Positions 1-25,794 of a DNA stretch of 64,000 nt are shown in pieces (the stretch's first letter is position 1; every line of letters begins with the position of its first letter). Made by a program: the position numbers and the translations under genes. Source of the DNA: a virus. Below the pieces are notes generated by a model that ran no database searches, was not told the DNA's origin, and saw only the letters and a program-made list of their open reading frames with translations. The stretch lies in the IMG/VR virus record IMGVR_UViG_3300042541_001760, positions 53,689 to 117,688 of that record. One strand, given 5' to 3'.

Positions 1-395
1 CCTGGTGTTGTTAGTAATCTTAATTTACCCATTAAAACATTACCCTCCCACCATACTTCAGTAATAAGGTGAGAAACTCTGTCTAAATCTATTAAAGAAG
101 ATTCGGGGTGATTTAATTCAGATAAAGATGTTCCTTTTTGAATTAATTTTTTATAATTCTCGGCTTCTCTTTTTAATATTTTTTCGGGGTATGATCTACC
201 ATTTCTGTTTGGCGTGTCGTATTTTTGTAATACGGCGTAGAACTCAAAAGGTTTACTATGATCTAGAAAACCTTTTGATTCTTTTAATATATCTTGGTTA
301 CCGAACTCTCTTGGTGATACATAACCTGCGTCATCCTCAATAAGAATACCTTTCTTACCTGATTCGTTACCTTTTAAAATTCTATATTCGCTCAT
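1..395 (-). CDS. Prohead core protease, T4 gp21-like (partial; runs off the window start)
   Basis: Minus-strand ORF with ATG at 393-395 (MSEYRILKGNESGKKG...) open to position 1. The translation contains RNGRSYPEKILKREAENY...SELNHPESSL...EVWWEGNVLMGKLRL. From memory this matches the conserved core of T4 gp21 (RLYPKRILEKAVKDY...GELNHP...DMWWKGNDVYGRARV). It lies downstream of the portal in transcription order, as in T4. The listed + ORF 128-343 is an antisense artefact. Confidence 0.8.
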   Translation of the reverse strand, partial: MSEYRILKGNESGKKGILIEDDAGYVSPREFGNQDILKESKGFLDHSKPFEFYAVLQKYDTPNRNGRSYPEKILKREAENYKKLIQKGTSLSELNHPESSLIDLDRVSHLITEVWWEGNVLMGKLRLLTTP

Positions 396-950: not shown

Positions 951-1679
951 TTAAAGTTTATCAATTAATGAACGCAATTTAACTAATTCTAACCTATCTG
1001 GAGTTTTGATTTTAATATTGTCTATTGTTTCGTTAATGGTGGTTCTAACCGACTCATCACTCTCATTTACCGTTAATAATGCTAGTTTAACAATAGCGTC
1101 ATCTCTCAACTCGTTAAATTTCCTTTCTAATGTTGACTCATCCATTTTTAATAGACCTATAACCTCTTTTTGTTCCGATTCGGTAAGGTTACTAATATAT
1201 TCCGAATATGACTTATTCGCGATACTCAGCATTGAGTTTATTGGTATGTTAATGTTTGTATTATTTTCACAAGAAGGTTCTTTTTGTAAATTTTCTACAA
1301 CGATTTTTTTGTTTTTAATTTTATTCTCTAAATTTAAAACGTCATTTGATCTACCCAATAAATTATCAATATGTTCGTATTGATTATCTACTTTTATTTT
1401 AGACACCCACCCCATAATGGATTTAATGTCCTTGTCTTGAACTCTATTAATTATATTCTCATAAAGTGTAATGGATTCAAATACGAATTCTTTTGCGATA
1501 CTCTCATTCAAACCCTTATTAGAACTTAGTTCATCATATAGATAAAATAACTTAGAGATATTTTTATTACTAAGAACCAATTTATTGAATGTTTTTATTT
1601 CATTCTTAAATGTGTTATTACTATATGACTCCAATAATAGAGTTTCAATTTTCGTTTTTAATATACCAAATTTTACCAT
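951..1679 (-). CDS. Hypothetical protein, possible prohead core/scaffold component
   Basis: 242-aa ORF immediately downstream of the portal gene. Charged and predicted helical. A TATATAAATAT box sits 14 nt upstream of the start (plus coords 1693-1702). Confidence 0.5.
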   Translation of the reverse strand: MVKFGILKTKIETLLLESYSNNTFKNEIKTFNKLVLSNKNISKLFYLYDELSSNKGLNESIAKEFVFESITLYENIINRVQDKDIKSIMGWVSKIKVDNQYEHIDNLLGRSNDVLNLENKIKNKKIVVENLQKEPSCENNTNINIPINSMLSIANKSYSEYISNLTESEQKEVIGLLKMDESTLERKFNELRDDAIVKLALLTVNESDESVRTTINETIDNIKIKTPDRLELVKLRSLIDKL

Positions 1680-3631: not shown

Positions 3632-5404
3632 TCATCGTTTGTTACCAAATAACCAACCATAGTCAATATAGTCCTGTCTTGATGCTCCTTGTTGTCTTGG
3701 GTCTTGGTATCTTTGTTGTATATTGGGCGATCCAGGATTAAACGAAATTGACTTGGCTGGAGACTCATCAACGTTAACCGTCCAAGATTCCAACATCGCT
3801 TTTGTATGTTCTGTAACCTTTCCTAATTGACTAAATGAAGATTCACCAACATAAATTGCCATCGCAATGGACATAAGTAAATCATCGTGTTGACCCTTTT
3901 GATGATCAGGTCTACCACTAATATAAACAAAAGTATTCATCTCGTTTAATAGACGATTACTATGAATAATAAAATTATGTCTTACCGCCTCCTCAAACGC
4001 CGCAATTATCTGAACTCTCTTATTATTGAAGTTAATACCCGGTATCTTCTCATTTTGCTTTGGGTCGTATTTCCATTTGTTTTGATAATCAACACCATCA
4101 ACATATAAATCCCTATAACCCAACTCCTGCATTTTTCTAGACGTAGATACTCCCATTCCTCCTGTTATATCAACAACAACAAAACAAGAATACATATTAG
4201 CCCATTTAAAGGCAATATCCGCCATAATGTCTGGTGGTACCTTACCAACATATTCGGCAACTTGTTCTCTCTCATCAAAATCTATAATTTGGAATGTTGA
4301 GTAATCCTCACTATCTCCTCTTGATACGTCAACCCCCATAATGTATTTGTGACCAATTACAGGTTCTTTCCATATCCATAAAGAGTTTGCCATCATCTTA
4401 TTTGTCGGCTCTGAAATGGTATTTTCACGAATCTTGGTAAGTGTCTTTGAATCAAACACGTTATCACCAGATCCAAGGAAGTTACACTCCAATTCCTGAG
4501 AAACTTTTCTCTTGTCGTATTTTAACTTCTTTACCATTCCCTCAAACCAAGAAGAACAAGGTTTAAATCCGTCTTTAAAATAAGGTTTTAGTTTTTCGTG
4601 GTCACCACTATTTGGGTGATAATGTTCTATTTTTACTACTGCATCTGATGGGTATTGTTCCTTATTTAACAAATAGTGAATAATATCATCCGTTTTAACC
4701 AAGAACATATCTTTGGTATATCTTGGATCTCTATACCAAAACATTTCAGATATTTTAAAATCATTAAACCCTCTTAACGCCTGGTCATAGATTTCGTAAT
4801 AAATGGGGTCATACCCGTTTGGTGTTGAAATTACAATAACTTTACCACCCGTAGATAGTGAAGCCATACAGGCTGACCAGAAATCCGCATCCGCTTCAAT
4901 GTAAGCAGCCTCATCAAATATTAGTATTGTTGGTGTATAACCACGTAAAGCATCCTTAGATGTTGCTACCGCCTTTACTTCACAACCATTTGTTAATTTG
5001 TAATGTCTTTGTGAGTTCTTTTCTTTAGCAAATCCAATATCAACCCAAGACGGCCATTGTTCAATAAACCCTCTGACTTTATTAGCCATCTCTTGGGCGG
5101 TATCCAATTTATTGGCGATAATTAGAATCTTCTCAGGTGTTTGTTTTTTCGCGAAGGCTATTTTCTTAGACGCCCAAGCGGCGGTTACGGTGGATACGCC
5201 CGCCTGTCTATACTTTAGGGCGATATTCTCGTTATTATTCTCATAATCGTCAAGTAAGGATATTTGGTCGGGAAACAATTCTAAAGGAACAAATCTAGAT
5301 ACCGTATTATCATACGTCTGTAAATACGTTTTAAGTGCATAAGGGGTATCCCTCATACACTTAACATATTCTATTAAAACTTGTTCCTTTGTTATATTTT
5401 GCAT
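3632..5404 (-). CDS. Terminase large subunit (TerL), T4 gp17-like
   Basis: 590-aa protein. N-terminal ATPase with Walker-B-like ILIFDEAAYIE and the adenine-binding/coupling region VIVISTPNG. C-terminal RNaseH-like nuclease with acidic motifs MGVDVSRGDSEDYSTFQIIDFDE. Adjacent to the portal gene. Confidence 0.9.
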   Translation of the reverse strand: MQNITKEQVLIEYVKCMRDTPYALKTYLQTYDNTVSRFVPLELFPDQISLLDDYENNNENIALKYRQAGVSTVTAAWASKKIAFAKKQTPEKILIIANKLDTAQEMANKVRGFIEQWPSWVDIGFAKEKNSQRHYKLTNGCEVKAVATSKDALRGYTPTILIFDEAAYIEADADFWSACMASLSTGGKVIVISTPNGYDPIYYEIYDQALRGFNDFKISEMFWYRDPRYTKDMFLVKTDDIIHYLLNKEQYPSDAVVKIEHYHPNSGDHEKLKPYFKDGFKPCSSWFEGMVKKLKYDKRKVSQELECNFLGSGDNVFDSKTLTKIRENTISEPTNKMMANSLWIWKEPVIGHKYIMGVDVSRGDSEDYSTFQIIDFDEREQVAEYVGKVPPDIMADIAFKWANMYSCFVVVDITGGMGVSTSRKMQELGYRDLYVDGVDYQNKWKYDPKQNEKIPGINFNNKRVQIIAAFEEAVRHNFIIHSNRLLNEMNTFVYISGRPDHQKGQHDDLLMSIAMAIYVGESSFSQLGKVTEHTKAMLESWTVNVDESPAKSISFNPGSPNIQQRYQDPRQQGASRQDYIDYGWLFGNKR

Positions 5405-9575: not shown

Positions 9576-11903
9576 TTAGATTTTGTTAGCAAATTCCTTA
9601 TAGAAATTTTTAAATATTTCTGAGTGGTCGTAACTATCCTTATCCGTACAAATAACTTTTCCTTTGTAGTTAGAATCGTCTTTATGGGTGCAGTACCATT
9701 TTAATACCTCCCTTGGGACATACCCTGGTGGTTTATTTCCCCAATTTTTCCAATTACATGTCATGTAAGTATTACTACCAAAATCTAAATTAATATATGG
9801 TGATTCTCCTTGTCCCTGACCTTCAGGTGAAGGGTCAATTAAACCCACAAATTTCATATTACTTCTTGGACCTACATAATCCCACATTTTCATACCTCCT
9901 TTAGAAAACCCGGCAATTGAGGTTACGGTCGCATTGTAATTATCTTTCACGTGCTTTATAGCCTCTTCAACAGAGGTTCCCCAATGAGTTATCACTACCA
10001 AAACTTTACCTTTAATTGGGTCAACTCCCGATCCGTAAAAACTTTCATTTAATGAAATCTGACCATTTTGATTAGAATGTAATCCCGCAAATAAAACGTG
10101 TGCTTCACCACCCTTAAAATTATCAGGTTTATAAACTAAGTAATTCTTAGACTTTCTTTTTTCGGTTGGTTGATTTTTATCTCCGATTGTGGATTCTTTA
10201 GATTTTACAGGTTTATTTTCTATCTTATCTATGTAAGGTTCTATATCTTCTGATTGGATATTTTTTTCTTTTAATTTTCCTAATAGAACTTTAACCATTT
10301 CAGGTGTCGCAACTGAATTTACTAAATATTCACCATTATATTTACCAATATATTTTTTATCAATTATAGTTTCAGGGTCAACGGCTACCCCATTTAATAT
10401 TACCTCAAAATGTAAGTGTGGATATGTGGAATTTCCTTTTTTTGATTTTTCATCTTTCTCCCCATTACAACCCCCCTCTTTACCACCGTTACATCCACCG
10501 GTTTTACCAATAATTTGACCTTGTGTTACCGTATCACCTTTTGAAACATCTATTTCATTACAATGACAATATTTTGTTTGATAACCGTCTGAGTGTTGTA
10601 TTAAAATATAACCTCCGCATTTACCAACACCAAAGGATGACCCTACCACTTTTCCGTCGGCGGGTGATTTTATCGTAGTATTTCTATCACTACGTAAATC
10701 AACACCATTATGTGGTCTACCTCCACGAGGTCCAAACTTTGAAATCACCACTAATGTACCATCCAATGGAGGTAAAATTTTTGATTGATTGTCAGTTTCA
10801 TCAGTTGATTCAGCTTTTTCAACTGCTTCTATATTCTCCTTCTTGAATTTTTCAACTTGTCCAGAGGTTTCAGGTCCATATAAACCATCAACACCGTGAT
10901 TTGGTAACTTATAACCTAATAGTTCCAACCCTATTTGTATCGACTCAACATTTTCTTGAAATGAATACTCACCTCTTTTTTGTTGGGATACAGGTTCTTG
11001 GATTGAATCTAAAGTTTTATAGAATTCGGAAACATCGTCACTAACTATGTCTGCTTTCTTTGGGTTATCAACCTTAACTTCACCTTCTTTATTTTTTTTA
11101 CCCGAAAATAAATTAGATAAAAAATCTCTTATTTTTCCTTTATTTTTTTCTTGTTCACCAATTAATTTTTGCTCCAATGACAATTCCCTATCGACCTTTT
11201 CTTTTTCAAAGTTGAATAGTTTTTCAATATACCCATTTCGTCTAAGGTATTTAAATACCAAATTTTCGTAGGATAATTCTCCACCACCCTCTAATCCGGA
11301 TTGTCTATATTTTTTAAGTTTATCTTTGAAACCGCCTAATAACTTTAAAGCAGCCTCTAAGTCCTTACCTTTAGCCGAATCAATAACCTCATCAATTTTT
11401 TCAGTCCATTGGTCAACTTTTGACATAAGAACTTCTTTATCGGCTTTAAAATCACCTTTTTTAGGTGGTGTTAACCATTTGTTATATATAACGGAATATA
11501 CCCCTGTTGAGAAGTGGGGTTCATTACTGTCCTGTAGATATAACTCAACGTCATAACCATAAATCTTTATATTATGGTCAGAGTTAAATAATGTTTTTTT
11601 TAATTTAAAAAGTTCTTTATAAAGGTCTAATTGTTCTTTTGGGAATTGTTCAAAATCCACAATTACGTGTAAATCAAAATCAGAGTATTTTGACCAATTA
11701 TAGTTAGCCATAGAACCTGTCATATGAACATCGGACACGATAATATCAATACCTAAAAATTCTATGAATTCATAAGCAATTTCTAATAACTTTTCTCTAA
11801 TTTCAGGTTTAAGTTTTGTCGACTTATTGTCCTTAACCCACACCTTTGGATTTAGTCCTTTTTTTAAATCAAAGCTTGATAAAATTTCACTATCCTTTTT
11901 CAT
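9576..11903 (-). CDS. Multi-domain cell-wall hydrolase: N-terminal minimal nucleotidyltransferase fold, PG-binding domain, M23 peptidase, C-terminal alpha/beta-hydrolase (GXSXG)
   Basis: 775 aa. Pol-beta-type nucleotidyltransferase signature TGSMANYNWSKYSDFDLHV (GS-x10-DxD). PG_binding_1-like IQIGLELLGYKLPNHGVDGLYGPETSGQVEKFKKEN. M23 motifs HNGVDL (HxxxD) and HLHFEV (HxH). C-terminal GFSKGG nucleophile elbow. Confidence 0.85.
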   Translation of the reverse strand: MKKDSEILSSFDLKKGLNPKVWVKDNKSTKLKPEIREKLLEIAYEFIEFLGIDIIVSDVHMTGSMANYNWSKYSDFDLHVIVDFEQFPKEQLDLYKELFKLKKTLFNSDHNIKIYGYDVELYLQDSNEPHFSTGVYSVIYNKWLTPPKKGDFKADKEVLMSKVDQWTEKIDEVIDSAKGKDLEAALKLLGGFKDKLKKYRQSGLEGGGELSYENLVFKYLRRNGYIEKLFNFEKEKVDRELSLEQKLIGEQEKNKGKIRDFLSNLFSGKKNKEGEVKVDNPKKADIVSDDVSEFYKTLDSIQEPVSQQKRGEYSFQENVESIQIGLELLGYKLPNHGVDGLYGPETSGQVEKFKKENIEAVEKAESTDETDNQSKILPPLDGTLVVISKFGPRGGRPHNGVDLRSDRNTTIKSPADGKVVGSSFGVGKCGGYILIQHSDGYQTKYCHCNEIDVSKGDTVTQGQIIGKTGGCNGGKEGGCNGEKDEKSKKGNSTYPHLHFEVILNGVAVDPETIIDKKYIGKYNGEYLVNSVATPEMVKVLLGKLKEKNIQSEDIEPYIDKIENKPVKSKESTIGDKNQPTEKRKSKNYLVYKPDNFKGGEAHVLFAGLHSNQNGQISLNESFYGSGVDPIKGKVLVVITHWGTSVEEAIKHVKDNYNATVTSIAGFSKGGMKMWDYVGPRSNMKFVGLIDPSPEGQGQGESPYINLDFGSNTYMTCNWKNWGNKPPGYVPREVLKWYCTHKDDSNYKGKVICTDKDSYDHSEIFKNFYKEFANKI

Positions 11904-11935
11904 TAACTAATAAATACTACAAAACATGTATTTAG

Positions 11936-12178
11936 TTAAAGTTTTTTATATGGGTGAACTTTTGCAATTTTTGAACTGAAGAATTTACCTTGAGATTCCG
12001 ACATTCTAAATTGAGTATATAATTGATGGGGTACATCTTGATACTCATATTTTAAACCATTATTAAACTCAACTAATAGATCCTTTGTTTCGGTATCATA
12101 TTCTGTGTGTTTAATATTTGACGAAGTAATATCATTAATTATTTTTGTTCCTATAATTTCTTCTTTTGTGATTGCCAT
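11936..12178 (-). CDS. KTSC-domain protein
   Basis: 80 aa. LLVEFNNGLKYEYQDVPHQLYTQFRMSESQGKFFSSKIA matches the KTSC domain pattern (F.nG..Y.Y..VP...Y......S.G.yF...I). Confidence 0.6.
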   Translation of the reverse strand: MAITKEEIIGTKIINDITSSNIKHTEYDTETKDLLVEFNNGLKYEYQDVPHQLYTQFRMSESQGKFFSSKIAKVHPYKKL

Positions 12179-12269: not shown

Positions 12270-12659
12270 TTAAGACCAAGAAGCGTCTCCAATATCACCT
12301 TGATACTTTCTAAATTCTCTATCGTGGTCAAATCCAGATTCACCACCACTCTTTTGTGGTCTTCTAGTTTTGATTGTTAAAGGTTTTCCTGTTTTTTCTT
12401 TATATGTGTTAAACATTGCCTTACCCATATCACCACCTAAAGCTCTTCTTTTTGGATGTTTTTCGTGAAATGATTCATAGTCATTAAATTCCTCTGAATC
12501 AAAATCATCATCATTTATATCATCGTCAGAGAATTGGTCGGTATCCATATCAACCCATTTTTCATCACCACCAAATGAACCATATCTTTCACCTTCGCTG
12601 ATTATTCTTTTTACTAACCTAACTAAATCACTTTCTGTTAATCTTACAATTTTTTTCAT
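12270..12659 (-). CDS. Hypothetical protein with leader type b (MKKIVRLTESDLVRLVKRIISEGE)
   Basis: 129 aa. The N-terminal 25 residues are near-identical in pattern to the N-terminus of ORF 51238-51753 (MKVIKLTESDIKKIVKRVISEEE). Confidence 0.5.
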   Translation of the reverse strand: MKKIVRLTESDLVRLVKRIISEGERYGSFGGDEKWVDMDTDQFSDDDINDDDFDSEEFNDYESFHEKHPKRRALGGDMGKAMFNTYKEKTGKPLTIKTRRPQKSGGESGFDHDREFRKYQGDIGDASWS

Positions 12660-13230: not shown

Positions 13231-15273
13231 ATGAATGAGATAATGGACGGTGATGGACCTTCATCAAGAAAAAAAGGCGACAACGATAGTGGTACTCCTG
13301 TACTGGATAACTTCAGTAAAGATTTAAATAAATTGGCTGAGGAAGGTAAATTAGATTCAGTTATTGGTAGAGATAAAGAGATATTAAGAATTGCTCAGAT
13401 ATTATCAAGAAGAAAGAAAAATAATCCTATTATTATTGGAGAACCGGGTTGTGGTAAGACCGCAATTGTTGAGGGATTGGCAATGAAAATCCAACAAGGT
13501 GAATGTCCGAGAAATTTAGCGGATAAGAGAATTGTCCTGTTAGATATGACATCCATTGTTGCGGGAACAAAATACAGAGGTCAGTTTGAGGAAAGAATGA
13601 AAGTGATTATTGAAGAATTACAATCACATCCCAACATTATTATCTTCATAGATGAGATTCACACCATTGTAGGTGCAGGTAATTCATCAGGATCATTGGA
13701 CGCTTCAAACATATTCAAACCAGCATTGGCAAGAGGTGAGATTCAATGTATCGGAGCTACAACACTTGATGAATACCGTAAAAACTTTGAGAAAGACGGA
13801 GCGTTGGAAAGAAGATTCCAAAAAGTGGTGGTTGACCCTTCAACGAAAGAAGAAACTCTACAAATTCTAAAAAACTCAAAAGACAAATACGAGAGTTACC
13901 ATAAAGTTATTTTTAGTGACGAAGTATTAATCACTTGTGTTGATTTGGCGGACAGATATATTACCGATAGAGAGTTTCCCGATAAGGCTTTTGATATTAT
14001 AGATGAAGTTGGGGCAAGAAGTCAGGTGGATATTAAAATGCCTGAAGTTATTGAGAAATTGAAATTGGACGCAATTGATATCAAACAACAAAAGATTGAT
14101 GTTGTAAAGAAACAGAATTACGAACAAGCGGCAGAACTTAGAGATAAGGAGAAAAAAATTCTGAATAAACTTCACGTAGAAAAAATGAAGTTTGAAGAAG
14201 AAATGAATATCAATAAGAAAGAAGTTGAGATTGAATTGGTTTATGAAGTTGTATCCAATATGACAAAAATTCCTGTTGGAAAACTTAACATTGACGATTC
14301 AAAATCATTGGTTGATTTGGAGGTTAATATCGGATCGAAAGTTATTGGTCAATCTGAAGCGGTTTCAAAAATATCAAAAGCAATTAGAAGAAATAGATTA
14401 GGTATTAAAGACCCAAATAGACCCATAGGATCGTTTATCTTCTTAGGATCCACAGGTGTGGGTAAAACACACTTAGCCAAGCAATTGGCGAAAGAGATAT
14501 TCGGTAGTGAAGATTCTTTAATTAGAGTTGATATGTCCGAATATCAAGAAAAACACTCAATCTCTCGTTTAATCGGATCTCCTCCGGGATATGTTGGTTA
14601 TGATGAAGGTGGTCAATTAACTGAACAAGTTAAAAACAAACCATACTCCGTTATTTTATTTGATGAAATTGAAAAGGCAAATAAAGACATATTCTCAACT
14701 TTACTACAGGTATTGGATGATGGTCACCTTACAGATGGATTGGGAAGAAAAATCAATTTCAAAAATTGTCTTATCATTATGACATCAAATATTGGTGTTA
14801 AAAAATTACAAGATTTTGGGGCTGGTGTTGGATTCCAAACTAAGTCCTATGTTGAAGAAGAACAAAAACGAGACATCCTTAAAAAGGAACTTCAAAAATT
14901 CTTCGCACCTGAATTCCTAAACAGAATTGATGATGTGATAATCTTTAACACCCTAAAACAAGAACAAATTAACGAAATCGTTAAGATTGAACTTAATAAG
15001 TTATCATCAAGATTGACTAAAATCAAATACCAATTCAAATTTGAATCTTCGGTAACTGATATGATATCAAAAGTTGGTTTTGATGAAATGTATGGGGCTA
15101 GACCTTTAAAGAGGGCTATCCAAGATAAAATTGAGGATTATATTTCCGAGGAAGTTCTTAGAGGTGAACTTAAAACCGAAACACCTTATGTGGTTACGGC
15201 AGAGAATGACGTTATTATTATAACGGAAGAGAAAAAAGGAAAGAAGGGTAAAACAAAAAAGGAGGTTGAATAA
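13231..15273 (+). CDS. ClpC/ClpB-like double AAA+ chaperone ATPase lacking the N-domain
   Basis: 680 aa. D1 Walker A GEPGCGKTAIVEGLA and Walker B IIFIDEIHTIVGAG. Short UVR-like middle motif KQNYEQAAELRDKEKKI. D2 FLGSTGVGKTHLAKQLA...RVDMSEYQEKHSISRLIGSPPGYVGYDEGGQLTE...LFDEIEKA...LQVLDDGHLTDGLGR. Confidence 0.9.
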   Translation: MNEIMDGDGPSSRKKGDNDSGTPVLDNFSKDLNKLAEEGKLDSVIGRDKEILRIAQILSRRKKNNPIIIGEPGCGKTAIVEGLAMKIQQGECPRNLADKRIVLLDMTSIVAGTKYRGQFEERMKVIIEELQSHPNIIIFIDEIHTIVGAGNSSGSLDASNIFKPALARGEIQCIGATTLDEYRKNFEKDGALERRFQKVVVDPSTKEETLQILKNSKDKYESYHKVIFSDEVLITCVDLADRYITDREFPDKAFDIIDEVGARSQVDIKMPEVIEKLKLDAIDIKQQKIDVVKKQNYEQAAELRDKEKKILNKLHVEKMKFEEEMNINKKEVEIELVYEVVSNMTKIPVGKLNIDDSKSLVDLEVNIGSKVIGQSEAVSKISKAIRRNRLGIKDPNRPIGSFIFLGSTGVGKTHLAKQLAKEIFGSEDSLIRVDMSEYQEKHSISRLIGSPPGYVGYDEGGQLTEQVKNKPYSVILFDEIEKANKDIFSTLLQVLDDGHLTDGLGRKINFKNCLIIMTSNIGVKKLQDFGAGVGFQTKSYVEEEQKRDILKKELQKFFAPEFLNRIDDVIIFNTLKQEQINEIVKIELNKLSSRLTKIKYQFKFESSVTDMISKVGFDEMYGARPLKRAIQDKIEDYISEEVLRGELKTETPYVVTAENDVIIITEEKKGKKGKTKKEVE

Positions 15274-16153: not shown

Positions 16154-16600
16154 TTAATCTTTTGATTTGATTTTAAATTTTATATTTTCCACATCATTTT
16201 TACTTGAAACCCAATGAACGTCAGATGGAATTTTTTCTAAGAGATTTGAATAATTTTTTAGTAAGGTATTAAAGTGTTTTTTATTAAACCATTTAGACCT
16301 TTTAATAATTATTTTAACTACATTTTTATCCTTATCTAATAATATTGCCGATCCGGGCGCCATTATACTAACCTCATTCTTGAAAGTATCAAAGTCAAAA
16401 TGTTTTCTCATGCCGTCAAAATCGTCATCATCATCTTGCGACATTAAATTTTTACCCATGTCTTTTGTATAATCGTCACCTTGATAAAACATTGAGTCCA
16501 TAGGAGATTCTAAAATAATGGTATTATAACCTCTTTTTTTATGCATTTCTAATATTCTACCTCTCTCAGATGAATTAATATTGTTGAATAAATTTTTCAT
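16154..16600 (-). CDS. Hypothetical protein
   Basis: 148-aa ORF. A TATAAATAT box sits at 16614-16622, 14 nt upstream of its start. Confidence 0.5.
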   Translation of the reverse strand: MKNLFNNINSSERGRILEMHKKRGYNTIILESPMDSMFYQGDDYTKDMGKNLMSQDDDDDFDGMRKHFDFDTFKNEVSIMAPGSAILLDKDKNVVKIIIKRSKWFNKKHFNTLLKNYSNLLEKIPSDVHWVSSKNDVENIKFKIKSKD

Positions 16601-18075: not shown

Positions 18076-18468
18076 GGGTCCAAAATTGGTATCGACTGGC
18101 ATAGTTGGATATTAAGAGCATACCGAGGCTGAGTTAACCTTGTAAAACTGACTTAAACCGATATACGGCAACGTAATCAACAAACTTTCGGCAGTCGGAC
18201 TTGTTCGCACTTCTGAAACCGTAGCAGTAGCCTAAGGCGAATCTACAACGGGTCGGCGTACATACAACCTAGGAACAGAAGTACTTGCAAAAGGTGTGGT
18301 TTCTATCTAAAAAGAAACATGTGGAGGATTAGTTCTCAGTAAACCGAACCACTTTAAAAATAAGGGAATTGTGAAGTTTCGGATTGGTTAGAAAACCAAT
18401 GTCCTATGTATGTAGAACTTAGTAATCAATATGAACAACACGAGGGTTCGAATCCCTCTGGATCCACC
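18076..18468 (+). ncRNA. ssrA: tmRNA (transfer-messenger RNA)
   Basis: The 5' end GGGTCCAAAATTGGTATCGACTGG resembles the E. coli tmRNA 5' end GGGGCUGAUUCUGGAUUCGACGGG. GCATACCGAGG matches the conserved GCAUGCCGAGG. The 3' end carries the T-arm GAGGGTTCGAATCCCTC and the acceptor strand TGGATCC-A-CC, which pairs with the 5' GGGTCCA. That pairing includes a G3:U70 wobble, the alanine identity element. An internal tag frame ends ...SETVAVA-TAA at 18233-18235. The element lies in a 500-nt ORF-free gap and is followed by a T-run. Confidence 0.7.
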
Positions 18469-18503
18469 TCTAAACCTCATCAGAAATGGTGGGGTTTTTT
18501 TAT

Positions 18504-18845
18504 TTAATAAAGATTAGTTATCCAGTTATATCTTGACTCAATCTTAGGTAAGTATCTATCTAATAAAAAATTATATATTTCATCAGACGGAAATTCGTCT
18601 TGACCCCAATTTGATAAATCTCCGTGATACTCGTCAATAATACCATTTATTATACGTCTTTTAAAATCATCAAATTCCATCCTATTACCATCTCTAAGTT
18701 CTCTTAAAAAAATATCAGTAACGTAATTTAAATTATCTAGTATGTCACTATCTAATGAACTAATATCAACTCTTCTACGTAGAAAAGAAGATTCATTAAT
18801 CCCCATCACTTCCTGTATCCTCTGTATATTTTCTTGTAGATTCAT
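18504..18845 (-). CDS. Leader-family protein (MNLQENIQRIQEVMG N-terminus)
   Basis: 113 aa. Conserved N-terminal 15-mer shared with 20289, 20605, 21462 and 22235. A TATAAATAT box abuts the start codon. Confidence 0.6.
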   Translation of the reverse strand: MNLQENIQRIQEVMGINESSFLRRRVDISSLDSDILDNLNYVTDIFLRELRDGNRMEFDDFKRRIINGIIDEYHGDLSNWGQDEFPSDEIYNFLLDRYLPKIESRYNWITNLY

Positions 18846-18860
18846 AACATATAAATATTA

Positions 18861-19580
18861 TCACACATTGATAATTTTCCATTTCCCTTTGAAGTCCTCA
18901 ACCAAACAAGTTGAATTCTCGCAAAAGTCGCCTGAGTTCATATAATCATCGGTTAATTTTGGGTAATGGATATGTCCACATACGGTAACATCATACCCCT
19001 TTTCTTTTGTTAGTGATTTTGCGTTATCTTCAAAATCAGATACAAAATTAATTACACCTTTAACGCTTTGTTTTACCACATTAGCCAATGAATGGTATGG
19101 TAAATTAAACCATCTCCTTATGTAGTTATATAGGGTGTTGAATCTAATAACAAAATCATACGACCACCCACCGATAACCGCCAACCATCTGGCTTCCATA
19201 ATAACAAAATCCAATACATCCCCGTGATAACAATAATAACTACGACCATCGGCTCCGATATGGACATATTTTCTTACAATCTCTATATTATTTAATGTGA
19301 ATGGTATGAACTCCTTTAGAAAGTCATCGTGATTTCCTCTAATATAAATTACCTTAGTTCCCTTCTCACTTCTTTTCATAAACTTACGAAATATCTTGGA
19401 GCAGTTGTTATTCCATTTTCCCCCACTTTTTAACGCCCATCCATCAATAATATCACCATTTAAAATTAATGTTTCAGATTCGTTCTCTTCCAAAAACTTT
19501 ATAATTTTATTGGTTTGTGATTGTCTTGAACCAAGATGTAGATCACTCATTATTATCGTTCTCCACTTTTTCATTTCCAA
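18861..19580 (-). CDS. Calcineurin-like metallophosphoesterase, LpxH-like (UDP-2,3-diacylglucosamine diphosphatase family)
   Basis: 239 aa. Motifs SDLHLG, LNGDIIDGW, IRGNHDDFL and YHGDVLDF parallel the LpxH motifs DLHL / GDLFEAWIGDD / HGNRDFL / HGDTLCTDD. Confidence 0.65.
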   Translation of the reverse strand: MEMKKWRTIIMSDLHLGSRQSQTNKIIKFLEENESETLILNGDIIDGWALKSGGKWNNNCSKIFRKFMKRSEKGTKVIYIRGNHDDFLKEFIPFTLNNIEIVRKYVHIGADGRSYYCYHGDVLDFVIMEARWLAVIGGWSYDFVIRFNTLYNYIRRWFNLPYHSLANVVKQSVKGVINFVSDFEDNAKSLTKEKGYDVTVCGHIHYPKLTDDYMNSGDFCENSTCLVEDFKGKWKIINV

Positions 19581-20317
19581 TATCCTTTATCGTTTTTGAA
19601 GTATGATTTGTTATTGTGGTTGAAGAATGAGTTAATCATTAATTTTATCATATACATAACACCTTTATTTTTAAATCTTCTTGGTGGTGTATATACTATA
19701 TTATTTATTCTACCGAACTTATTAGGTTTAATTTGTTTTGATAAAATATAATCCTCGGCGACTTTTACGTCCTCATCAAACCCCCCTATTAACTTAAATG
19801 TTTCGGATCTAATCAACATAAAACCACCAAGACAAAATGGTGTAATCCATTTTGAAAGTGATTGTATTACATCAAATGACTTGTATATGTAATTGTATTC
19901 ACCATTGTCAGTCCTGAACTTCGTGGTTACCAAATCTAAGTTATTTTTATGTATTTTTTTTATTGATTGTGTTAGTATTTTTGCATCCAATAGAAACACA
20001 TCAGAATCCATAAATAATACATAGGGGGTTTTTACTATTTTGAATCCTTTATTTCTGGCTATCCCCGGTAATCCACCATCAATTATTATTAAATCAAATA
20101 GGTCTTTATTATGTGTTAATCTATTAATTAATGATTCATAGGTAACCGAATCGTTTGATGAATCACAAACTATAACATTTACTCCGGTTACGTTCCTCTG
20201 ATAATTTAATAAATCTAATGTTTTTAAAATAACATCTTTTTCATTTTTACAAGGAATTACTATTGTGATTAAATTTTTTAAATCCATATTAATCAATTCC
20301 CAATTTTTCCTTAACAT
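19571..20317 (-). CDS. Glycosyltransferase family 2
   Basis: 248 aa. ITIVIPCKNE...VIVCDSSNDS...IIIDGGLPGIARNKG...LFMDSDVFL (GT-A fold with DXD). Overlaps the downstream gene by 10 nt. Confidence 0.75.
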   Translation of the reverse strand: MLRKNWELINMDLKNLITIVIPCKNEKDVILKTLDLLNYQRNVTGVNVIVCDSSNDSVTYESLINRLTHNKDLFDLIIIDGGLPGIARNKGFKIVKTPYVLFMDSDVFLLDAKILTQSIKKIHKNNLDLVTTKFRTDNGEYNYIYKSFDVIQSLSKWITPFCLGGFMLIRSETFKLIGGFDEDVKVAEDYILSKQIKPNKFGRINNIVYTPPRRFKNKGVMYMIKLMINSFFNHNNKSYFKNDKGYWK

Positions 20318-20594
20318 ATTTAATCATAGGTTTTTCATACATTAAATATGAATCCCAATATTGTTGTTCCGTTCCTGTATCATTAATATCGCTAAAATTT
20401 TTTGTGGCTATGAATTGTCTTACCGTATCATAAATTGCGGTGCTCAAACTTTCACCCTCCTCTATTTGGTCTTTAATATCTTTAATCAGGTCATCTAGTT
20501 CGTCAATATCAAATCTCCTCTTGAACCACGGACTAAGATTTTCATTAAGACCCATCATTTCCTGTATCCTTTGTATGTTTTCTTGTAGATTCAT
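20289..20594 (-). CDS. Leader-family protein (MNLQENIQRIQEMMG)
   Basis: 101 aa. Conserved leader followed by an acidic body. Confidence 0.55.
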   Translation of the reverse strand: MNLQENIQRIQEMMGLNENLSPWFKRRFDIDELDDLIKDIKDQIEEGESLSTAIYDTVRQFIATKNFSDINDTGTEQQYWDSYLMYEKPMIKYVKEKLGID

Positions 20595-20604
20595 ACGTTA
20601 TAAC

Positions 20605-21459
20605 CTAAGCAAAATTATTTAATGATGAAGAATCATTATTTTTATTCATAGCAACAGTATTCATTAAATCAATAAAATTATTCATCTTTTCTTGGTTAGT
20701 TCCTTTTAAAGATTTAAAAATGTCTTGATAATGTACGTTTTTTAATATAGTTGGATTTTTAATCATTTTATTATAATCATCTTTAGTAAATTGTTTTTTC
20801 CCCGCATCGTATATACCTTGTTGATTTAGTAAATACCTAATTGGTTGGATTCTATTAATAAATTCACTTGGGGTTGATTCATAATCAAAAACCTTATCAC
20901 CGATTTTATAATTGGGGTATTTTTTATCACCTCCTTGGGTATACTTATAAATTTTTTCTTTTGTTGATTGTGGTATTCTTGAACCTCCGTCATCAACCAG
21001 GTGACCAAATTCATGAGCCGGTATAGTTTCATATCCGGTAACTGGATTCCAATTTTTTGGATTATACTCTTTTTCAAAATACACATGACCTTTCTTATCA
21101 TAACCTTTTGCATCAGGAGTCCATTTATTTTTTTTCCATTTTTTATCTAAATAATCATAATACTCACCCTCATAATTTTTAGGTATCATTAACCCTGATA
21201 CATATCCCGGTTCTTTTGAGATAGCTCTTACGAAGTGTGTTTGGTCTTTAACATTATCCAAATTTTTTAATCTCTCTTTTCTTTCTTTTTCTATAAAATC
21301 TTGAGGTTTATTAGGAAATTCTTTTTTTAATCTTTCTAAGTACATTGTCGAATTTAAATATGATTTCCACCACTGTAGTTGTTTGTCGAATTCACTGGTG
21401 GTTTGCTCATTTAAGCCCATTACTTCTTTAATTCTTTGTATGTTTTCTTGTAGGTTCAT
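20605..21459 (-). CDS. Leader-family protein with HExxH zinc-metallopeptidase motif
   Basis: 284 aa. MNLQENIQRIKEVMG leader. C-terminal AHEFGHLVDDGG (HExxH). Confidence 0.6.
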   Translation of the reverse strand: MNLQENIQRIKEVMGLNEQTTSEFDKQLQWWKSYLNSTMYLERLKKEFPNKPQDFIEKERKERLKNLDNVKDQTHFVRAISKEPGYVSGLMIPKNYEGEYYDYLDKKWKKNKWTPDAKGYDKKGHVYFEKEYNPKNWNPVTGYETIPAHEFGHLVDDGGSRIPQSTKEKIYKYTQGGDKKYPNYKIGDKVFDYESTPSEFINRIQPIRYLLNQQGIYDAGKKQFTKDDYNKMIKNPTILKNVHYQDIFKSLKGTNQEKMNNFIDLMNTVAMNKNNDSSSLNNFA

Positions 21460-21461
21460 AA

Positions 21462-22238
21462 CTATTTTTTAGGAGTTGGGATTTTAGTGTCTTTTATAAA
21501 TTTTCCATACGCATTTTTATATGACTTTTGCGTTTCATCATTTACGTTTTTGGTGTATTGCCAATTCCAATATAAATCTTTGTTTGGTTTGAATCCATAA
21601 AATTTATGAACTTCCTTTTGGGTTGCAGTTACATTCTCACCATTCCAATTCTGACCGACACAAATAAAACCTGTCTCAATATCTTTAATAATGTTTGATT
21701 CACCCAATGTTGTATGTCTATTTTCTAACCAATTCAATCTCTCAATTAAGTTTTGGTAATACATATTGGTCTGACCCCATCTTATAGAACTGAAAAATAA
21801 AACAACATCCGATTCAAATAACTCTTTGGATATCTTCCATAATTCGTCTGAGGGTTCATTTATATTAACCCAACATCTATGATCACCTGACGGGTTTTTA
21901 TCTTTGTCTTTAAGTTTGGCTTTTAATAATCCACAAGAGTTTCCGTCTTTTCTTGATACATTACCTTCACAGGGTAAAATTTTAAGTTCTGGTACATCTA
22001 TCAATACTGACTTATCACCTAATTGGTCTTTTAAATACATCGCAATCATTTTTGATTTTGGTATATCAATATTCTTATCATCCCAATTATATCTGTTTGA
22101 GCAACTTAATAATAAAACTTTTTTTTTCTTTTTTAGAATATCTAATGTTTTCTCAATTGATTTCCATGCGTCCGATTGAACCATTTCTTCCGAAATCATC
22201 ATCTCTCTTATTCTATCTATATTTTCTTGTAGGTTCAT
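21462..22238 (-). CDS. Leader-family protein (MNLQENIDRIREMM), possibly flavodoxin-like body
   Basis: 258 aa. Leader present. The body (VLLLSCSNRYNWDD...DVVLFFSSIRWGQTN) is of unknown fold. Confidence 0.55.
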   Translation of the reverse strand: MNLQENIDRIREMMISEEMVQSDAWKSIEKTLDILKKKKKVLLLSCSNRYNWDDKNIDIPKSKMIAMYLKDQLGDKSVLIDVPELKILPCEGNVSRKDGNSCGLLKAKLKDKDKNPSGDHRCWVNINEPSDELWKISKELFESDVVLFFSSIRWGQTNMYYQNLIERLNWLENRHTTLGESNIIKDIETGFICVGQNWNGENVTATQKEVHKFYGFKPNKDLYWNWQYTKNVNDETQKSYKNAYGKFIKDTKIPTPKK

Positions 22239-22756
22239 TTCTTTGTCTTTTTTACGCAGTTAGGGTATCTTTTACCAAACATTGTCTTCATTCCTTTTTG
22301 GGTGTATCCTGCCCAACATTTCTCTGTGAGTTCCCCTTCTTTCATTTCAGACATTTCATCAATTTCCTCCGAATAATCCTCATTCTTTAAACAATGATAT
22401 TCGTCACCAACATTTTGGAATAATTTACCTTTAAATTTGTCCGCATATTTCTCATTTAGATATTCTATTAGTAAATTATTAAATTCATCCAAATTTAATA
22501 ATACCGAATCTGAGTAAGCCCTAAGTTTCCTATAAGGACCGCACTCTGTTACCCATAAAACACCCCAATCATTTCTATGGAATACGTCTTTATCTTTTTT
22601 ATTATACCATTTACCATATACGTAATTCTTATCACCATATTCAACTTTTAAATCTAATTCGTTAAATACTCTATCAAAGCGACTAAACAGAAAACTTCTA
22701 ATTTTTTCTTCTTTGGTTTCCCTCAATACTCTTCTTATGGTTTCTTGTAGATTCAT
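22235..22756 (-). CDS. Leader-family protein (start moved to internal Met giving MNLQETIRRVLRE)
   Basis: The track ORF starts at 22780 (MFMLYLLHM...). The conserved leader and the nucleotide repeat begin at the Met at 22756. Overlaps the upstream gene by 4 nt. Confidence 0.5.
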   Translation of the reverse strand: MNLQETIRRVLRETKEEKIRSFLFSRFDRVFNELDLKVEYGDKNYVYGKWYNKKDKDVFHRNDWGVLWVTECGPYRKLRAYSDSVLLNLDEFNNLLIEYLNEKYADKFKGKLFQNVGDEYHCLKNEDYSEEIDEMSEMKEGELTEKCWAGYTQKGMKTMFGKRYPNCVKKTKK

Positions 22757-22779
22757 ATGTAATAAATATAACATAAACA

Positions 22780-22840
22780 AAAAAAGGTCGTCACAGGGAC
22801 AACCTTTAAGGGTATTGGTTTTGGTGAATTGGATTTTTTT
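22780..22840. repeat. Conserved intergenic stem-loop element, copy A
   Basis: AAAAAAGGTCGTCACAGGGACAACCTTTAAGGGTATTGGTTTTGGTGAATTGGATTTTTTT. Near-identical in layout to copy B at 24330-24390, with compensatory changes in the stem. Confidence 0.5.
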
Positions 22841-22876: not shown

Positions 22877-24331
22877 ATGAAAATATTAGTATCGGAAAGT
22901 CAATACAAAAGATTAGTTGAGAGTTTATTAGATGAATCCATTTTAATTATAGGTGATAGTCATAGCGTAGATGCAGGATTCACTTACTCAAGTTTATTAA
23001 AGAAAAAATTTTCGGATGTAAAAATATCAGCATCGGTTGGCCAAGGAACATCTTGGATGAAATCAGAATTAGCTAGAGAGTTAACCAAAAAACATTACGA
23101 TAAAGTTATAATTTGGGGTGGGAACAACGATATTGGTTCAACCTCCTCTATATCTGGAGCAATATCAAACATACAACAAATGGTTAATATGGTTAACTCA
23201 CAAGACGGTCAATCATATGTAATCATTGGTTTTGACCAAGAAGTTTTTACCAAAAAAGTAAAAAATAAAATGAGAGAAAGATATATAGATTTGCAAAAAC
23301 AGTTATCTAGTGAGATAAGTAATGCCGTAATAATTCCTGCCTTTGATATTGATAACTCTTACACATCAGATAATGTACACGGAAATAAGAGTGCTCACGA
23401 AAAAGTTTTTAGAACCGTTACGGAGTATCTACAAAAAACAACACAAAAAGAAAAACAAAAAGATGAAAGTAAAAATTCTGAAACGTTAATGTCAAGATTA
23501 GAAGATTATTTGGATTCTGGTTTAGAATTAGTTGCAAGAAAACGAGGTTCAATGGTTTATGAAAAAGAAGTTGAGGATATACAAACCGCTCTCCAATTTT
23601 TAGGGTTTTCTTTACCTAAGTGGGGTGTAGATGGAAAATTTGGGCCAGAAACAAAAAAAGCAACTGAAAACTTCCAAGAAGAAAATGATTTGGAAGTGAC
23701 AGGAATTTTTTCAATCAAAGATTTTGAAAAACTTATTGATGTTTTGGAATCAAAGGGTGTTACTGATGAAGATTTCATGAATGTTCAGAAAAACAAAACA
23801 GAAGAGTTATCATCAGATTTTGAATCGACGGATTTTGAAACAATTGAAAATTCTGGAATTCAAGTTAGTAAATACCCAAATGATATCGAAAATAGATTAC
23901 AGGATATTTTAGGTAAAGAAAAATTCAATATATTTGTTTCCAAGTGTCGAGGAATTGGGTTAGACCCTTTGATTGCAATTAGACAACTTTATACAGAATC
24001 TGTCGGTTTTAGTCCTGACGTTTTGACTTGTAAAAGAAAATCACCTGCGGGAGCCATGGGAATTGCTCAATTTATGCCGGGTACTTGGCCAAGTTATGGT
24101 AAAGGTAGTCCATGCAATGTCGATGACGCATTGGACGCTTATATTAGGTTTATGGATTATTTACTAAAAAGATATGAAGGTCGAGTAGATCTGGCAGTTG
24201 CGTCATATAATAGTGGTCCAAACTTAAATATATATAAGAAAACATATAACTCAAATACACCTTTCGCATCACTTAAAGGTAAAATACCAGGAGAAACATA
24301 TAAATACGCATCCACAATTCTACAAGCATAA
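22877..24331 (+). CDS. Three-domain lysin: SGNH/GDSL esterase, PG-binding domain, lytic transglycosylase (SLT)
   Basis: 484 aa. SGNH blocks IIGDSHS (I), IIWGGNNDIG (III) and DNVHGN (V). PG_binding_1-like IQTALQFLGFSLPKWGVDGKFGPETKKATENFQEEN. SLT motifs LYTESVGF (catalytic Glu), AMGIAQFMPGTW and VASYNSGP. The N-terminus MKILVSESQYKRLVESLLDES is leader type b. Confidence 0.85.
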   Translation: MKILVSESQYKRLVESLLDESILIIGDSHSVDAGFTYSSLLKKKFSDVKISASVGQGTSWMKSELARELTKKHYDKVIIWGGNNDIGSTSSISGAISNIQQMVNMVNSQDGQSYVIIGFDQEVFTKKVKNKMRERYIDLQKQLSSEISNAVIIPAFDIDNSYTSDNVHGNKSAHEKVFRTVTEYLQKTTQKEKQKDESKNSETLMSRLEDYLDSGLELVARKRGSMVYEKEVEDIQTALQFLGFSLPKWGVDGKFGPETKKATENFQEENDLEVTGIFSIKDFEKLIDVLESKGVTDEDFMNVQKNKTEELSSDFESTDFETIENSGIQVSKYPNDIENRLQDILGKEKFNIFVSKCRGIGLDPLIAIRQLYTESVGFSPDVLTCKRKSPAGAMGIAQFMPGTWPSYGKGSPCNVDDALDAYIRFMDYLLKRYEGRVDLAVASYNSGPNLNIYKKTYNSNTPFASLKGKIPGETYKYASTILQA

Positions 24332-24390: not shown

Positions 24391-24702
24391 TCCAATAAAC
24401 CCAAGTGTAATGTTAGTGACACATCACTCTCGATACGTTCGACCACGAGACGGATATTTTAATCGGTTAACTAAAACCAATGATTCTGTCCTTTTTGTTA
24501 ACTCTAAAGGACAACGTGAGTAACATATCATCTCACGTATTAAAGAGTAACGATTTTTTTGTTTTACGGGTATGGGGTGTAAAACTATTTAAACCATCGA
24601 AAAAAATAAAAGACCCCACAGAATAAATTTATTTAATCTTTTAATTTAACCTCCTAAAGAGACGGCTTTATTCTATATTCCGTCAAAAAAACGAGTCACT
24701 TG

Positions 24703-24777
24703 TTGCGGGAGCAGGAATCGAACCTGCGTGGTTGAGCTTATGAGACTCAGCTGGATCCGTCTCCAGTCTACCCCGCC
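24703..24777 (-). tRNA. tRNA-Met (CAT), initiator-like acceptor stem
   Basis: Reverse complement GGCGGGG-TA...CTCATAA...GCAGG-TTCGATT-CCTGC-TCCCGCA-A. The acceptor closely resembles E. coli tRNA-fMet (CGCGGGG/CCCCGCAA), including a 1:72 mismatch. Anticodon loop CTCATAA. The D-arm is irregular, so the call needs tRNAscan. Confidence 0.55.
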
Positions 24778-25794
24778 TTGGCTTACGTTGAGATTACACG
24801 TTTTAGTAGAAATCTTTGATGGGATTATTGTTTCCCCACGTATCCACCATCTTTTGAATGGTAATTTCCAGTGATGGTCTTTTAGGTGTACCACTCCTTG
24901 AATTTCTAACTACTCTCCTACTAATCCGTTCTCTTCAAACTTGCGGTCTGATTAGGTCTTCGACAACCTAGAGATTTTTCATAAGAATACATTCTGACTT
25001 GCGGTCTTCGTGTGCAATGGACATCCCATTACTATGTAATCACCTTTCGTTAGAAACTGATAGACACTTTTGCTTTCTTTTTAAATTTTTAGTAAAAAAA
25101 TCGAGTTATGTGTTGTGGATGTATCAAAGTAGTGGTCTACCGTAAGCTTCGTCGTCTTTTGAACAACAAAATACTAAACTACTTCGTGAAGTGTCCCCAC
25201 CTCCATACTTTAAGATAACTTCGTAACAAGATTTTGGTAAATCTTTGATAAGGACAGTAGCGACACCACTCGTTCTCTATCTTACCTTTCGGTTTTAAGT
25301 TATCTTTCATATTGGAACACGCAATTGTATCGTTGGAGCGATAGTTCTCGCAATATTCCTATGGGTTATTCTTATTGGTGTTCCCACCTCAACTTGACAA
25401 TCCACATTGCCTTGTCACCCAACCACTTTCTCTAAAGCGTCGCCCTCAATACTGAAGGTCAGGTGATATCCCACTTGTGTACTCAAGTTCAGTTACCTGA
25501 ACCGCAAACTCACTTACACTTGTGAATCCACTTTATCCTACTTTCGTAGTTTATTTAACGACCATACACGGCCGACTATCTTTATGTTTTACCGAAATAA
25601 AACAATGGATAATATTTTTTATGTCAAAGAACAATAATCATTTTTACTAATTAGAACTATGCTACTGACGGCTTAATTAGGGGTTCTCACCGCTCTAAAA
25701 TGTCAGGTTCACACCAGACCTCCTTTTCTAATTGTTTGACAAAGGTAGTAAATAAATTTCATTTGTCAAGCAATTTTTTAATTTTTTTTCGTCA

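Follow-up and report, generated by a model that had tools for sequence, protein, structure and literature searches.

A short N-terminal leader peptide on unrelated proteins of large freshwater phages, with a possible role in capsid targeting

Leader genes in the window

The subject of this analysis is a group of genes on a 64,000-nt stretch of viral DNA (positions 53,689 to 117,688 of IMG/VR record IMGVR_UViG_3300042541_001760; hereafter the window) that open with nearly the same short peptide, here called the leader, and continue into different proteins, here called cargo. The gene nearest the start of the window, g1, encodes 113 aa at 18504–18845, and its opening 45 nt occupy 18801–18845. 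A preliminary description of this DNA had quoted near-identical starts for five genes; the quoted sequences are correct, and we found exactly five mismatch-free copies of ATGAAYCTACAAGAAA, all on the minus strand and at open reading frame (ORF) starts (18845, 20594, 21459, 22238 and 22756). A scan with the same pattern allowing up to two mismatches returned six sites against 0.33 expected, and none of 100 shuffled sequences gave six. The five proteins, g1 to g5, begin MNLQE(N/T)I, and sequence comparison adds two more divergent members, g6 and g7, bringing the leader genes of the window to seven. These genes, together with two that lack a leader and lie among them, are:

18504–18845, minus strand: g1, 113-aa leader protein, MNLQENIQRIQEVMGINE followed by unknown cargo (leader at 18792–18845)
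18861–19580, minus strand: metallophosphoesterase, without leader
19571–20317, minus strand: family 2 glycosyltransferase (GT2), without leader
20289–20594, minus strand: g2, 101-aa leader protein, MNLQENIQRIQEMMGLNE followed by unknown cargo
20605–21459, minus strand: g3, 284-aa leader protein, MNLQENIQRIKEVMGLNE, cargo with a HEFGH (HExxH) motif
21462–22238, minus strand: g4, 258-aa leader protein, MNLQENIDRIREMMISEE, cargo with a predicted flavodoxin-like NAD(P)H quinone/azo-reductase fold
22235–22756, minus strand: g5, 173-aa protein with the variant leader MNLQETIRRVLRETKEE
40161–42350, minus strand: g6, 729-aa protein with a divergent leader beginning 8 residues in, MMKNQKKYLNEELNRIREIMGV (core at 42291–42326)
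42319–43767, minus strand: g7, 482-aa protein whose N-terminus, MEDQENFNRIKFLIG, resembles the leader core, with a C-terminal peptidoglycan-binding/endolysin-like domain

Genes g5, g4, g3 and g2 are contiguous (22756 down to 20289), but g1 is set apart from g2 by the GT2 and metallophosphoesterase genes, so the "five tandem genes" of the preliminary description are tandem only in part. Nor did the sequences downstream of the leader simply diverge, as had been stated: beyond residue 19 the cargoes of g1 to g5 are mutually unrelated, with every pairwise BLASTP E-value above 0.04. No match to g1 was found in Pfam, PHROG or NCBIfam. The g3 cargo resembles the C-terminal part of phrog_24249 (annotated 'tail protein'; E=2.2e-7), and the assignment of g4 is based on its Joint Genome Institute (JGI) name, 'multimeric flavodoxin WrbA', and on a Foldseek search with its AlphaFold2 (AF2) model, which matched NQO2/AzoR (E about 6e-6). 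The ATG at 22756, rather than the TTG at 22780, is the true start of g5, and the divergent leader of g6 reads ..YLNEELNRIREIMG; MMKNQKKYLNEELNRIREIMG. The sequences upstream of g2, g3 and g4 are unrelated to one another, all three genes lying inside an operon.

Distribution and form of the leader peptide

The leader has the consensus MNLQENIxRIKxMMG(L/I/V)x(x)E, about 18 residues. In IMG/VR, the 21-nt pattern ATGAAYCTACAAGAAAAYATA matched 82 contig stretches (about 4 to 298 kb), and a second, independent DNA pattern for RIKEMMG matched 61 stretches. At the protein level, we counted 191 instances of the core h-x-E-x-I-x-R-I-x-x-h-M in 123 loci together with the window; 176 of them have a Met exactly 2 residues upstream of the core. 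The 139 unique leader proteins fall into at least 71 cargo clusters without BLASTP similarity to each other, and among the 71 cargo representatives E5 and R9 are invariant. An exhaustive search of 1.84 billion representatives (50%-identity clusters) with a leader profile gave 844 at E<=1e-3; 132 of the best 150 matches begin at residue 1, and most of the others begin within the first 21 residues, which is consistent with mis-called starts.

The leader is restricted to phage contigs, and no cellular occurrence was found: across 596 Gb of representative genomes of bacteria and archaea, a degenerate leader pattern matched 17 times, and none of these matches continues into a leader. Among cultured phages (INPHARED), tblastn with the 20-aa consensus leader gave no match at that sensitivity, and blastn with the 57-nt consensus gave chance-level matches only. 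No model in Pfam, NCBIfam or PHROGs covers leader residues 1–20 (DUF6576 matches cargo at residues 19–52, not the leader), and a literature search with leader motif strings returned nothing relevant. The underlying feature is an undescribed, very widespread N-terminal tag of T4-type freshwater phages.

Structure prediction and sequence pattern describe the leader as an amphipathic helix, a Gly break and, after it, a short (I/L/V)-x-E stretch. In the AF2 model of g4, a low-confidence helix spans residues 3–19, with a hinge at 15–19 (predicted local distance difference test, pLDDT, below 50) before a confidently folded domain. The single-sequence AF2 model of g3 is poor overall (pLDDT 45.8) and has a helix at 3–14 and then a break. 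Hydrophobic residues at 3, 7, 10, 14 and 17 would form an amphipathic, heptad-like face. Complete leaders also occur inside ORFs without the initial Met (P0241, P0244, ..KRNLQEQISRMKSMMGIVTE..; P0241 also as ...DAPKRNLQEQISRMKSMMGIVTEWYE...), and the core motif was found at some C-termini as well; taken as a whole, the sequences describe a portable N-terminal peptide tag and not an RNA element.

P0241, P0242, P0243 and P0244 are single ORFs with two in-frame leader-plus-cargo units, the second leader lacking its Met, and look like polyprotein-style fusions of neighbouring cassettes.

Peptide conservation versus nucleotide conservation

The preliminary description held that about 45 nt of the leader are conserved, synonymous positions included. 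Among g1 to g5, pairwise nucleotide identity is 86–95% over nt 1–21, 29–88% over nt 22–45 and random further on, so the claim stands for nt 1–21 (near-identity over 16–21 nt) and fails for nt 22–45. We compared codons in pairs encoding the same amino acid, with the expectation taken from the window's own codon usage. For codons 2–7 of g1 to g5 the same codon was used in 46 of 56 such pairs versus 30.5 expected (P=0.004), an excess due to CTA at Leu3 (12% of window Leu codons) and ATA at Ile7. For codons 8–18 the count was 19 of 41 versus 21.6 expected (P=0.76), that is, nucleotide identity no higher than the amino acids and codon usage predict. Since the amino acids of codons 8–18 are kept while their codons sit at the codon-usage expectation, selection appears to act on the peptide, and we take the peptide to be the conserved unit and amino acids to be the main target of constraint, a reading absent from the preliminary description.

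Leaders from other contigs give the same picture. They had been picked only by a nucleotide pattern in codons 9–15, which leaves the first half of the leader free of ascertainment bias. In these independently ascertained leaders, Asn2 is AAC in 77% (background 28%), Leu3 is CTA in 45% (background 9%), Asn6 is AAC in 72%, and Ile7 is ATA in 97% (31 of 32; background 36%). Synonymous codons occur side by side in the second half (AGA/AGG 27:22; GGG/GGA/GGT 15:14:8), and synonymous identity between contigs over codons 8–16 is 0.54; a general conservation of wobble positions is therefore not borne out. The position-specific codon skew that remains in codons 2–7 is real, and no tested explanation accounts for it. 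Ongoing gene conversion, which had been offered as a cause, is at most weak: for non-orthologous leader pairs, synonymous identity within versus between loci is 0.60 versus 0.54 over codons 8–16 and 0.70 versus 0.64 over codons 2–7, a small difference in data that are not independent.

The other proposed cause, an RNA-level constraint, found no support as the main one. RNA structure prediction across the leader start regions gave no shared fold (z-scores from -0.64 to +1.39, with differing structures), and an Rfam scan of the leader genes gave no family at or above its gathering score. Upstream of two of the genes we noted promoter-like elements:

18851–18857, minus strand: promoter-like TATTTAT directly upstream of g1
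22762–22807, minus strand: terminator-like hairpin (22783–22807), then promoter-like TATTTAT (22762–22768), 5 nt before the g5 ATG

The TATTTAT element ends about 5 nt before the ATG in g1, g5 and about 30% of leader genes, and because of this short distance the g1 and g5 transcripts may be nearly leaderless in the sense of lacking a 5' untranslated region. A leaderless-mRNA enhancer was rejected as the source of the skew in codons 2–7, as promoter-adjacent leader genes and the others are equally skewed (all P>0.19). The T4 late promoter TATAAATA had 24 matches against 15.4 expected, with no specific tie to leader genes. More widely, about 30 of the window's 66 gene starts, on both strands, are preceded at 11–26 nt by a promoter-like (G/A)TATTTAT(T/A) element, those of 9576–11903, 16154–16600 and 13231–15273 among them; no Shine-Dalgarno sequence is visible.

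Leader-bounded cassette turnover

Shuffling of cassettes and leader-mediated rearrangement in related genomes, also proposed in the preliminary description, can be seen directly. Over the 2,677 bp of g4-g3-g2-GT2, a relative (locus L001) matches the window at 99.25% identity. Where the window has a single gene with a g5-type leader upstream of g4, L001 has two (274 aa and 151 aa). The window tracks L001 to the ATG of the 151-aa gene and from leader nt 17 onward tracks the g4 of L001; this switch between two genes at their shared leader indicates that a 460-bp cassette was gained or lost by a crossover inside ATGAAYCTACAAGAAA. The arrangement of another locus, L010, is the same as that of the window. 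The crossover site is:

22223–22238, minus strand: 16-nt leader start of g4, ATGAAYCTACAAGAAA, where a 460-bp cassette with the 151-aa leader gene was lost or gained relative to L001

In a second, older indel, about 2.6 kb of leader genes are present in L008 only and not in L017, and the alignment again switches at a leader. Recombination between leader copies thus alters cassette content, and we see cassette turnover without strong homogenisation of the leaders. Whatever the function of the tag, a leader-bounded indel between 99%-identical genomes means that a short coding repeat drives accessory-gene turnover. T4 reportedly carries mobile regulatory cassettes of a 'promoter-early stem-loop' type, ascribed to Arbiol and colleagues (2010); these are likewise short repeats at gene starts in T4-type genomes that serve as recombination sites for modular shuffling, although they are non-coding promoter and stem-loop units and the repeat here is the first 16–21 coding nt.

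Phage type and head module

Genes near the start of the window point to the kind of phage from which it comes:

3–395, minus strand: gp21-family (Peptidase_S77) prohead protease, N-terminal 131 aa, cut by the window edge, with a LIE site and an ELNHP motif
1706–3568, minus strand: portal protein of T4 gp20 type (phrog_213, E=1.3e-62; syntenic homologue with PF07230 Portal_T4)
3632–5404, minus strand: large terminase, distantly T4 gp17-like

The protease fragment is 81% identical to the protein at 11285–12013 of the related locus L144, which carries PF03420 and is itself 37% identical to T4 gp21 (E=3e-22) in a match that covers ELNHP and SSRG.GS; in the S77 alignment, the L-I-E near the N-terminus of gp21 does not vary. 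The best cultured match of the terminase is Flavobacterium phage immuto (27% identity). In syntenic relatives the gene order is a polyvalent M23 protein ... Terminase_6N, Portal_T4, a 241-aa protein, a 150-aa protein, Peptidase_S77, DUF4494, an acidic 549-aa scaffold-like protein (L144 12424–14073) and Gp23. The Gp23 major capsid protein of these relatives is 30% identical to T4 gp23, with HLINE|ASS just upstream of the conserved VRR core. Given the S77 protease, Portal_T4, terminase and Gp23 evidence, the source of the window is, as judged by these homologies, a distant T4-type phage with gp21-type head maturation. The host of these large freshwater phages is probably a member of the Bacteroidota. 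The window also encodes an Rnl1-type RNA ligase, a two-ring Clp-type ATPase, seven tRNAs, a transfer-messenger RNA (tmRNA) and a GOLLD RNA.

A possible capsid-targeting propeptide

We propose, with moderate confidence, that the leader is a cleavable capsid-targeting propeptide, analogous to the capsid-targeting sequence (CTS) of T4 but far more widely used. We rate this reading most likely because of the ending of the leader, the overlap of its cargo with injected proteins and the parallels with T4. By way of its helix, the leader would dock its cargo to the scaffolding core while a T4-type prohead assembles, the gp21-family protease would cut after the Glu of (I/L/V)-x-E, and the mature cargo would remain in the head and be injected along with the DNA; the genes at 18504–22756 would then be part of a packaged arsenal of effector and auxiliary proteins. 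The tandem layout and the nearly invariant first 16–21 nt would permit recombination between leader copies, by which whole leader-plus-cargo cassettes could be added or removed. Docking, cleavage, packaging and injection are all steps that we infer.

In T4, gp21 cleaves after L/I-X-E, and the internal proteins and Alt carry an N-terminal CTS of 10–20 residues that binds the scaffolding core and is then cleaved off, the mature parts being diverse (PMC9026906, PMC5694885, PMC3012670). Of 112 leaders, 102 have their first Glu past residue 15 at positions 17–19, and at P3, two residues ahead of this Glu, 103 of 109 (94%) carry I, L or V, a pattern of sequence only; the (I/L/V)-x-E ending corresponds to the published gp21 cleavage motif and marks a predicted site. 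Further candidate sites within the leader are L3-Q4-E5 and I10-x-E12. By Pfam, the cargo domains include ART-PolyVal (two), PG_binding_1 (three), Peptidase_M15_4/VanY, DSPc/Tyr phosphatases, GNAT and P-loop kinases, a repertoire that overlaps proteins thought to be packaged and injected (PMC5512222).

Several points weigh against this proposal. The leader has no significant similarity to the T4 CTS MKTYQEFIAE (ipI, ipII and ipIII compared), only a QE-x-I resemblance, so that it would be an analogue and not a demonstrable homologue. The residue after the Glu (P1') is usually S, E, D or N, with Ala in a single case, in contrast to the Ala of the T4 sites inspected, and a heptad pattern alone would also yield hydrophobic-x-acidic triplets. 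Some of the cargo looks metabolic (a flavodoxin-like reductase and nucleotide-kinase-like P-loop proteins), and packaging of all 844 families would far exceed the diversity shown for T4. At least two other conserved N-terminal leader classes occur in the same phages, and each class might direct its proteins to a different place. Direct evidence that the leader occurs together with an S77 protease comes from this window alone.

The head-packaged, injected set of proteins is the home of early anti-defence and host-takeover effectors and is usually defined by virion proteomics. If the capsid-targeting proposal is right, the leader flags proteins carried in the head and injected by an uncultured phage; at least 844 protein families bear the tag, most of them unannotated and none with a curated model of the tag. 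The T4 CTS is already used for protein packaging in E. coli, and the leader, at 18 residues, would be a packaging signal ready for use in delivering proteins with phages that probably infect Bacteroidota.

Alternative explanations

The evidence for a portable peptide tag would serve equally well if the destination or partner were not the capsid. The leader could be a docking helix for a multi-enzyme complex or compartment, or a recognition motif for the phage's own ClpB/ClpC-like AAA+ unfoldase (13231–15273), for example in regulated unfolding or turnover, with the (I/L/V)-x-E ending merely part of the amphipathic pattern. In favour of this, the phage has genes for a two-ring Clp-type ATPase and for a tmRNA, some of the cargo is metabolic, and the two further leader classes suggest a sorting code; however, we identified no gene for an adaptor, ClpP or a compartment, the ending fits the cleavage motif of a protease encoded by the same phage, and the ADP-ribosyltransferase (ART), phosphatase, GNAT and cell-wall enzymes better suit injected proteins. 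We regard such a destination as possible but doubtful. That the leader exports cell-wall-active proteins across the membrane is hard to credit at all: several cargoes do have PG_binding_1, VanY/M15 or SLT-type domains, but most are of cytoplasmic type, the tag was not found in cellular genomes, and the leader is charged and amphipathic, its consensus MNLQENIxRIKxMMGLxxE having charged or polar residues every 2–3 positions and no hydrophobic core, twin-arginine or lipobox motif (judged from the consensus, with no predictor run).

Explanations at the level of DNA or RNA have to contend with the codon data. The likeness of the leaders might be kept mainly by gene conversion or cassette shuffling, the leader being a recombination module without a specific protein function. 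This would suit the nearly invariant first 16–21 nt in the window, the crossover inside 16 nt and the second leader-bounded indel, the slightly higher synonymous identity within loci, and the skew towards AAC, CTA and ATA in independently ascertained leaders. The amino acids are nevertheless kept where the synonymous sites of codons 8–18 are randomised, which argues for selection on the peptide; and because the same peptide is kept in hundreds of protein families on many contigs, recombination looks like a consequence of the leader and its mode of spread and not its reason, so we consider this account rather unlikely. Less probable again, and by a good way, is an RNA element in the first 45 nt or so (a shared translation-initiation region, a leaderless-mRNA enhancer or a regulatory RNA target). 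The skew is confined to codons 2–7, within the ribosome initiation footprint, with C and A favoured over T, and TATTTAT stands close to the ATG of g1, g5 and other leader genes, but against these stand the missing stable or shared structure and Rfam family, the equal skew with and without an adjacent promoter, the intra-operon position of g2, g3 and g4 behind unrelated upstream sequences, and the preservation of leaders inside ORFs and of the core motif at C-termini.

Comparison with known systems

The closest parallel to the capsid-targeting proposal is the CTS of T4 IPI, IPII, IPIII and Alt, cut by gp21: in both cases a short (10–20 aa in T4) N-terminal peptide ending in L/I-x-E stands on otherwise unrelated proteins of one phage (PMC9026906, PMC3012670) with gp20/gp21/gp23-type head assembly. 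Paralogous tags can be identical in DNA; in the T4 genome ipII and ipIII both open MKTYQEFIAE, with 30 identical nt and identical upstream sequence, and ipI opens MKTFKEF...STITE|A. ADP-ribosyltransferases are among the cargo here, and T4 Alt is a packaged ADP-ribosyltransferase. Unlike the CTS, the leader of the window is longer, is predicted to be helical with a Gly break, rarely has Ala at P1' and has no detectable homology to it; the scale also differs, from a handful of T4 proteins to at least seven in a 64-kb window and 844 clusters overall.

In the giant phages phiKZ, 201phi2-1 and SPN3US, propeptides of ejection or inner-body proteins are removed by gp21 homologues that cut after Glu, the paralogous head proteins gp53 and gp54 of SPN3US have identical N-termini, and multiple cleavage sites occur (PMC5694885), as the extra candidate sites of the leader recall. 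Those propeptides differ in having S/A-x-E or A-x-E sites and mostly more than 100 residues, compared with a T4-type I/L/V-x-E site and 18 residues here. For P1 DarB, an N-terminal segment of about 30 residues suffices for capsid delivery (PMC9024508), but this signal belongs to a single protein instead of marking a whole family, the head of P1 is not assembled in the gp21 manner, and the two signals are not known to have a motif in common. The polyvalent proteins of phages and conjugative elements share with the cargo ART-PolyVal, GNAT, kinase, zincin-like peptidase and cell-wall hydrolase domains and are, like it, predicted to be delivered with DNA (PMC5512222); they differ in combining many domains in one giant polypeptide, where here single domains each have a short tag.

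Other leader classes and neighbouring features

Two further N-terminal motifs recur on unrelated proteins of these phages, alongside the leader described above (class A). Class B, MKK(I/V)(I/V)RLTESDLTRIVKRVIxE, is found in the window at 12270–12659 and 51238–51753 (both minus strand), with variants at 22877–24331 and 48998–49627 (both plus strand), and in 64 instances in loci L004–L146; it ends in I-x-E, as class A does, and has a related form MKIIITESQ(Y/L)xxL. Class C, ..(S/T)EEE(K/R)xRILEMHK.. (also ..EEEKxRILEMH..), is found on otherwise different proteins at 16154–16600, 46024–47202 and 47524–48060 of the window (all minus strand) and in L105, L095 and L006. Classes A, B and C could conceivably form a peptide address code of large T4-like freshwater phages, by which hundreds of unrelated proteins would be directed into the capsid and injected, or sent to various sites in the virion or the cell, which we consider a speculative and unlikely extension; were it correct, the injected effectors of uncultured phages could be catalogued in silico directly from their tags.

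At the opposite end of g5, residues 126–172 (and also P0212) show a C-terminal basic motif, E.TEKCW.GYTQKGMKTMFGKRYPNCVKK, with the pattern CW.GY..G.K...GK..PNC. Five different PHROGs of unknown function have matching C-termini, and the motif may be a second portable module.

Within the head module, the gene at 951–1679 (minus strand) was considered as the prohead protease and rejected, as its homologues are named rubrerythrin and it had no PDB match; comparison with syntenic relatives then led to the protease at the window edge. The gene at 951–1679 (242 aa) is conserved, lies between the portal gene and those of the 150-aa protein and S77, and is 56% identical to the 241-aa protein of the relatives, and the JGI name 'rubrerythrin' that some homologues bear is unusual within a T4-type head module. 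Upstream of the module, 9576–11903 (minus strand) encodes a polyvalent-type protein with NTP_transf_2, PG_binding_1 and Peptidase_M23 domains, to which the relatives (L144 1–2097, L145 1–2154) add Phage_lysozyme2, VanY and Beta-lactamase2 domains. Kinship with the bS21-encoding Bacteroidetes phages (PMC9723584) is not claimed: the small reverse-strand ORFs beside the capsid gene in L144 and L145 look unlike bS21 by eye, no family search having been run.

The Clp-type ATPase at 13231–15273 is a two-ring ClpB/ClpC-like AAA+ unfoldase without an N-domain. The tmRNA (RF00023, 83 bits) lies at 18076–18469 on the plus strand, was missed by ARAGORN, is followed by a terminator hairpin at 18472–18497 and converges on g1. 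The GOLLD RNA (RF02032) is full-length at 24785–25186 on the minus strand (305.9 bits, E=1.3e-86), directly upstream of a tRNA-Met at 24702–24777 on the same strand.

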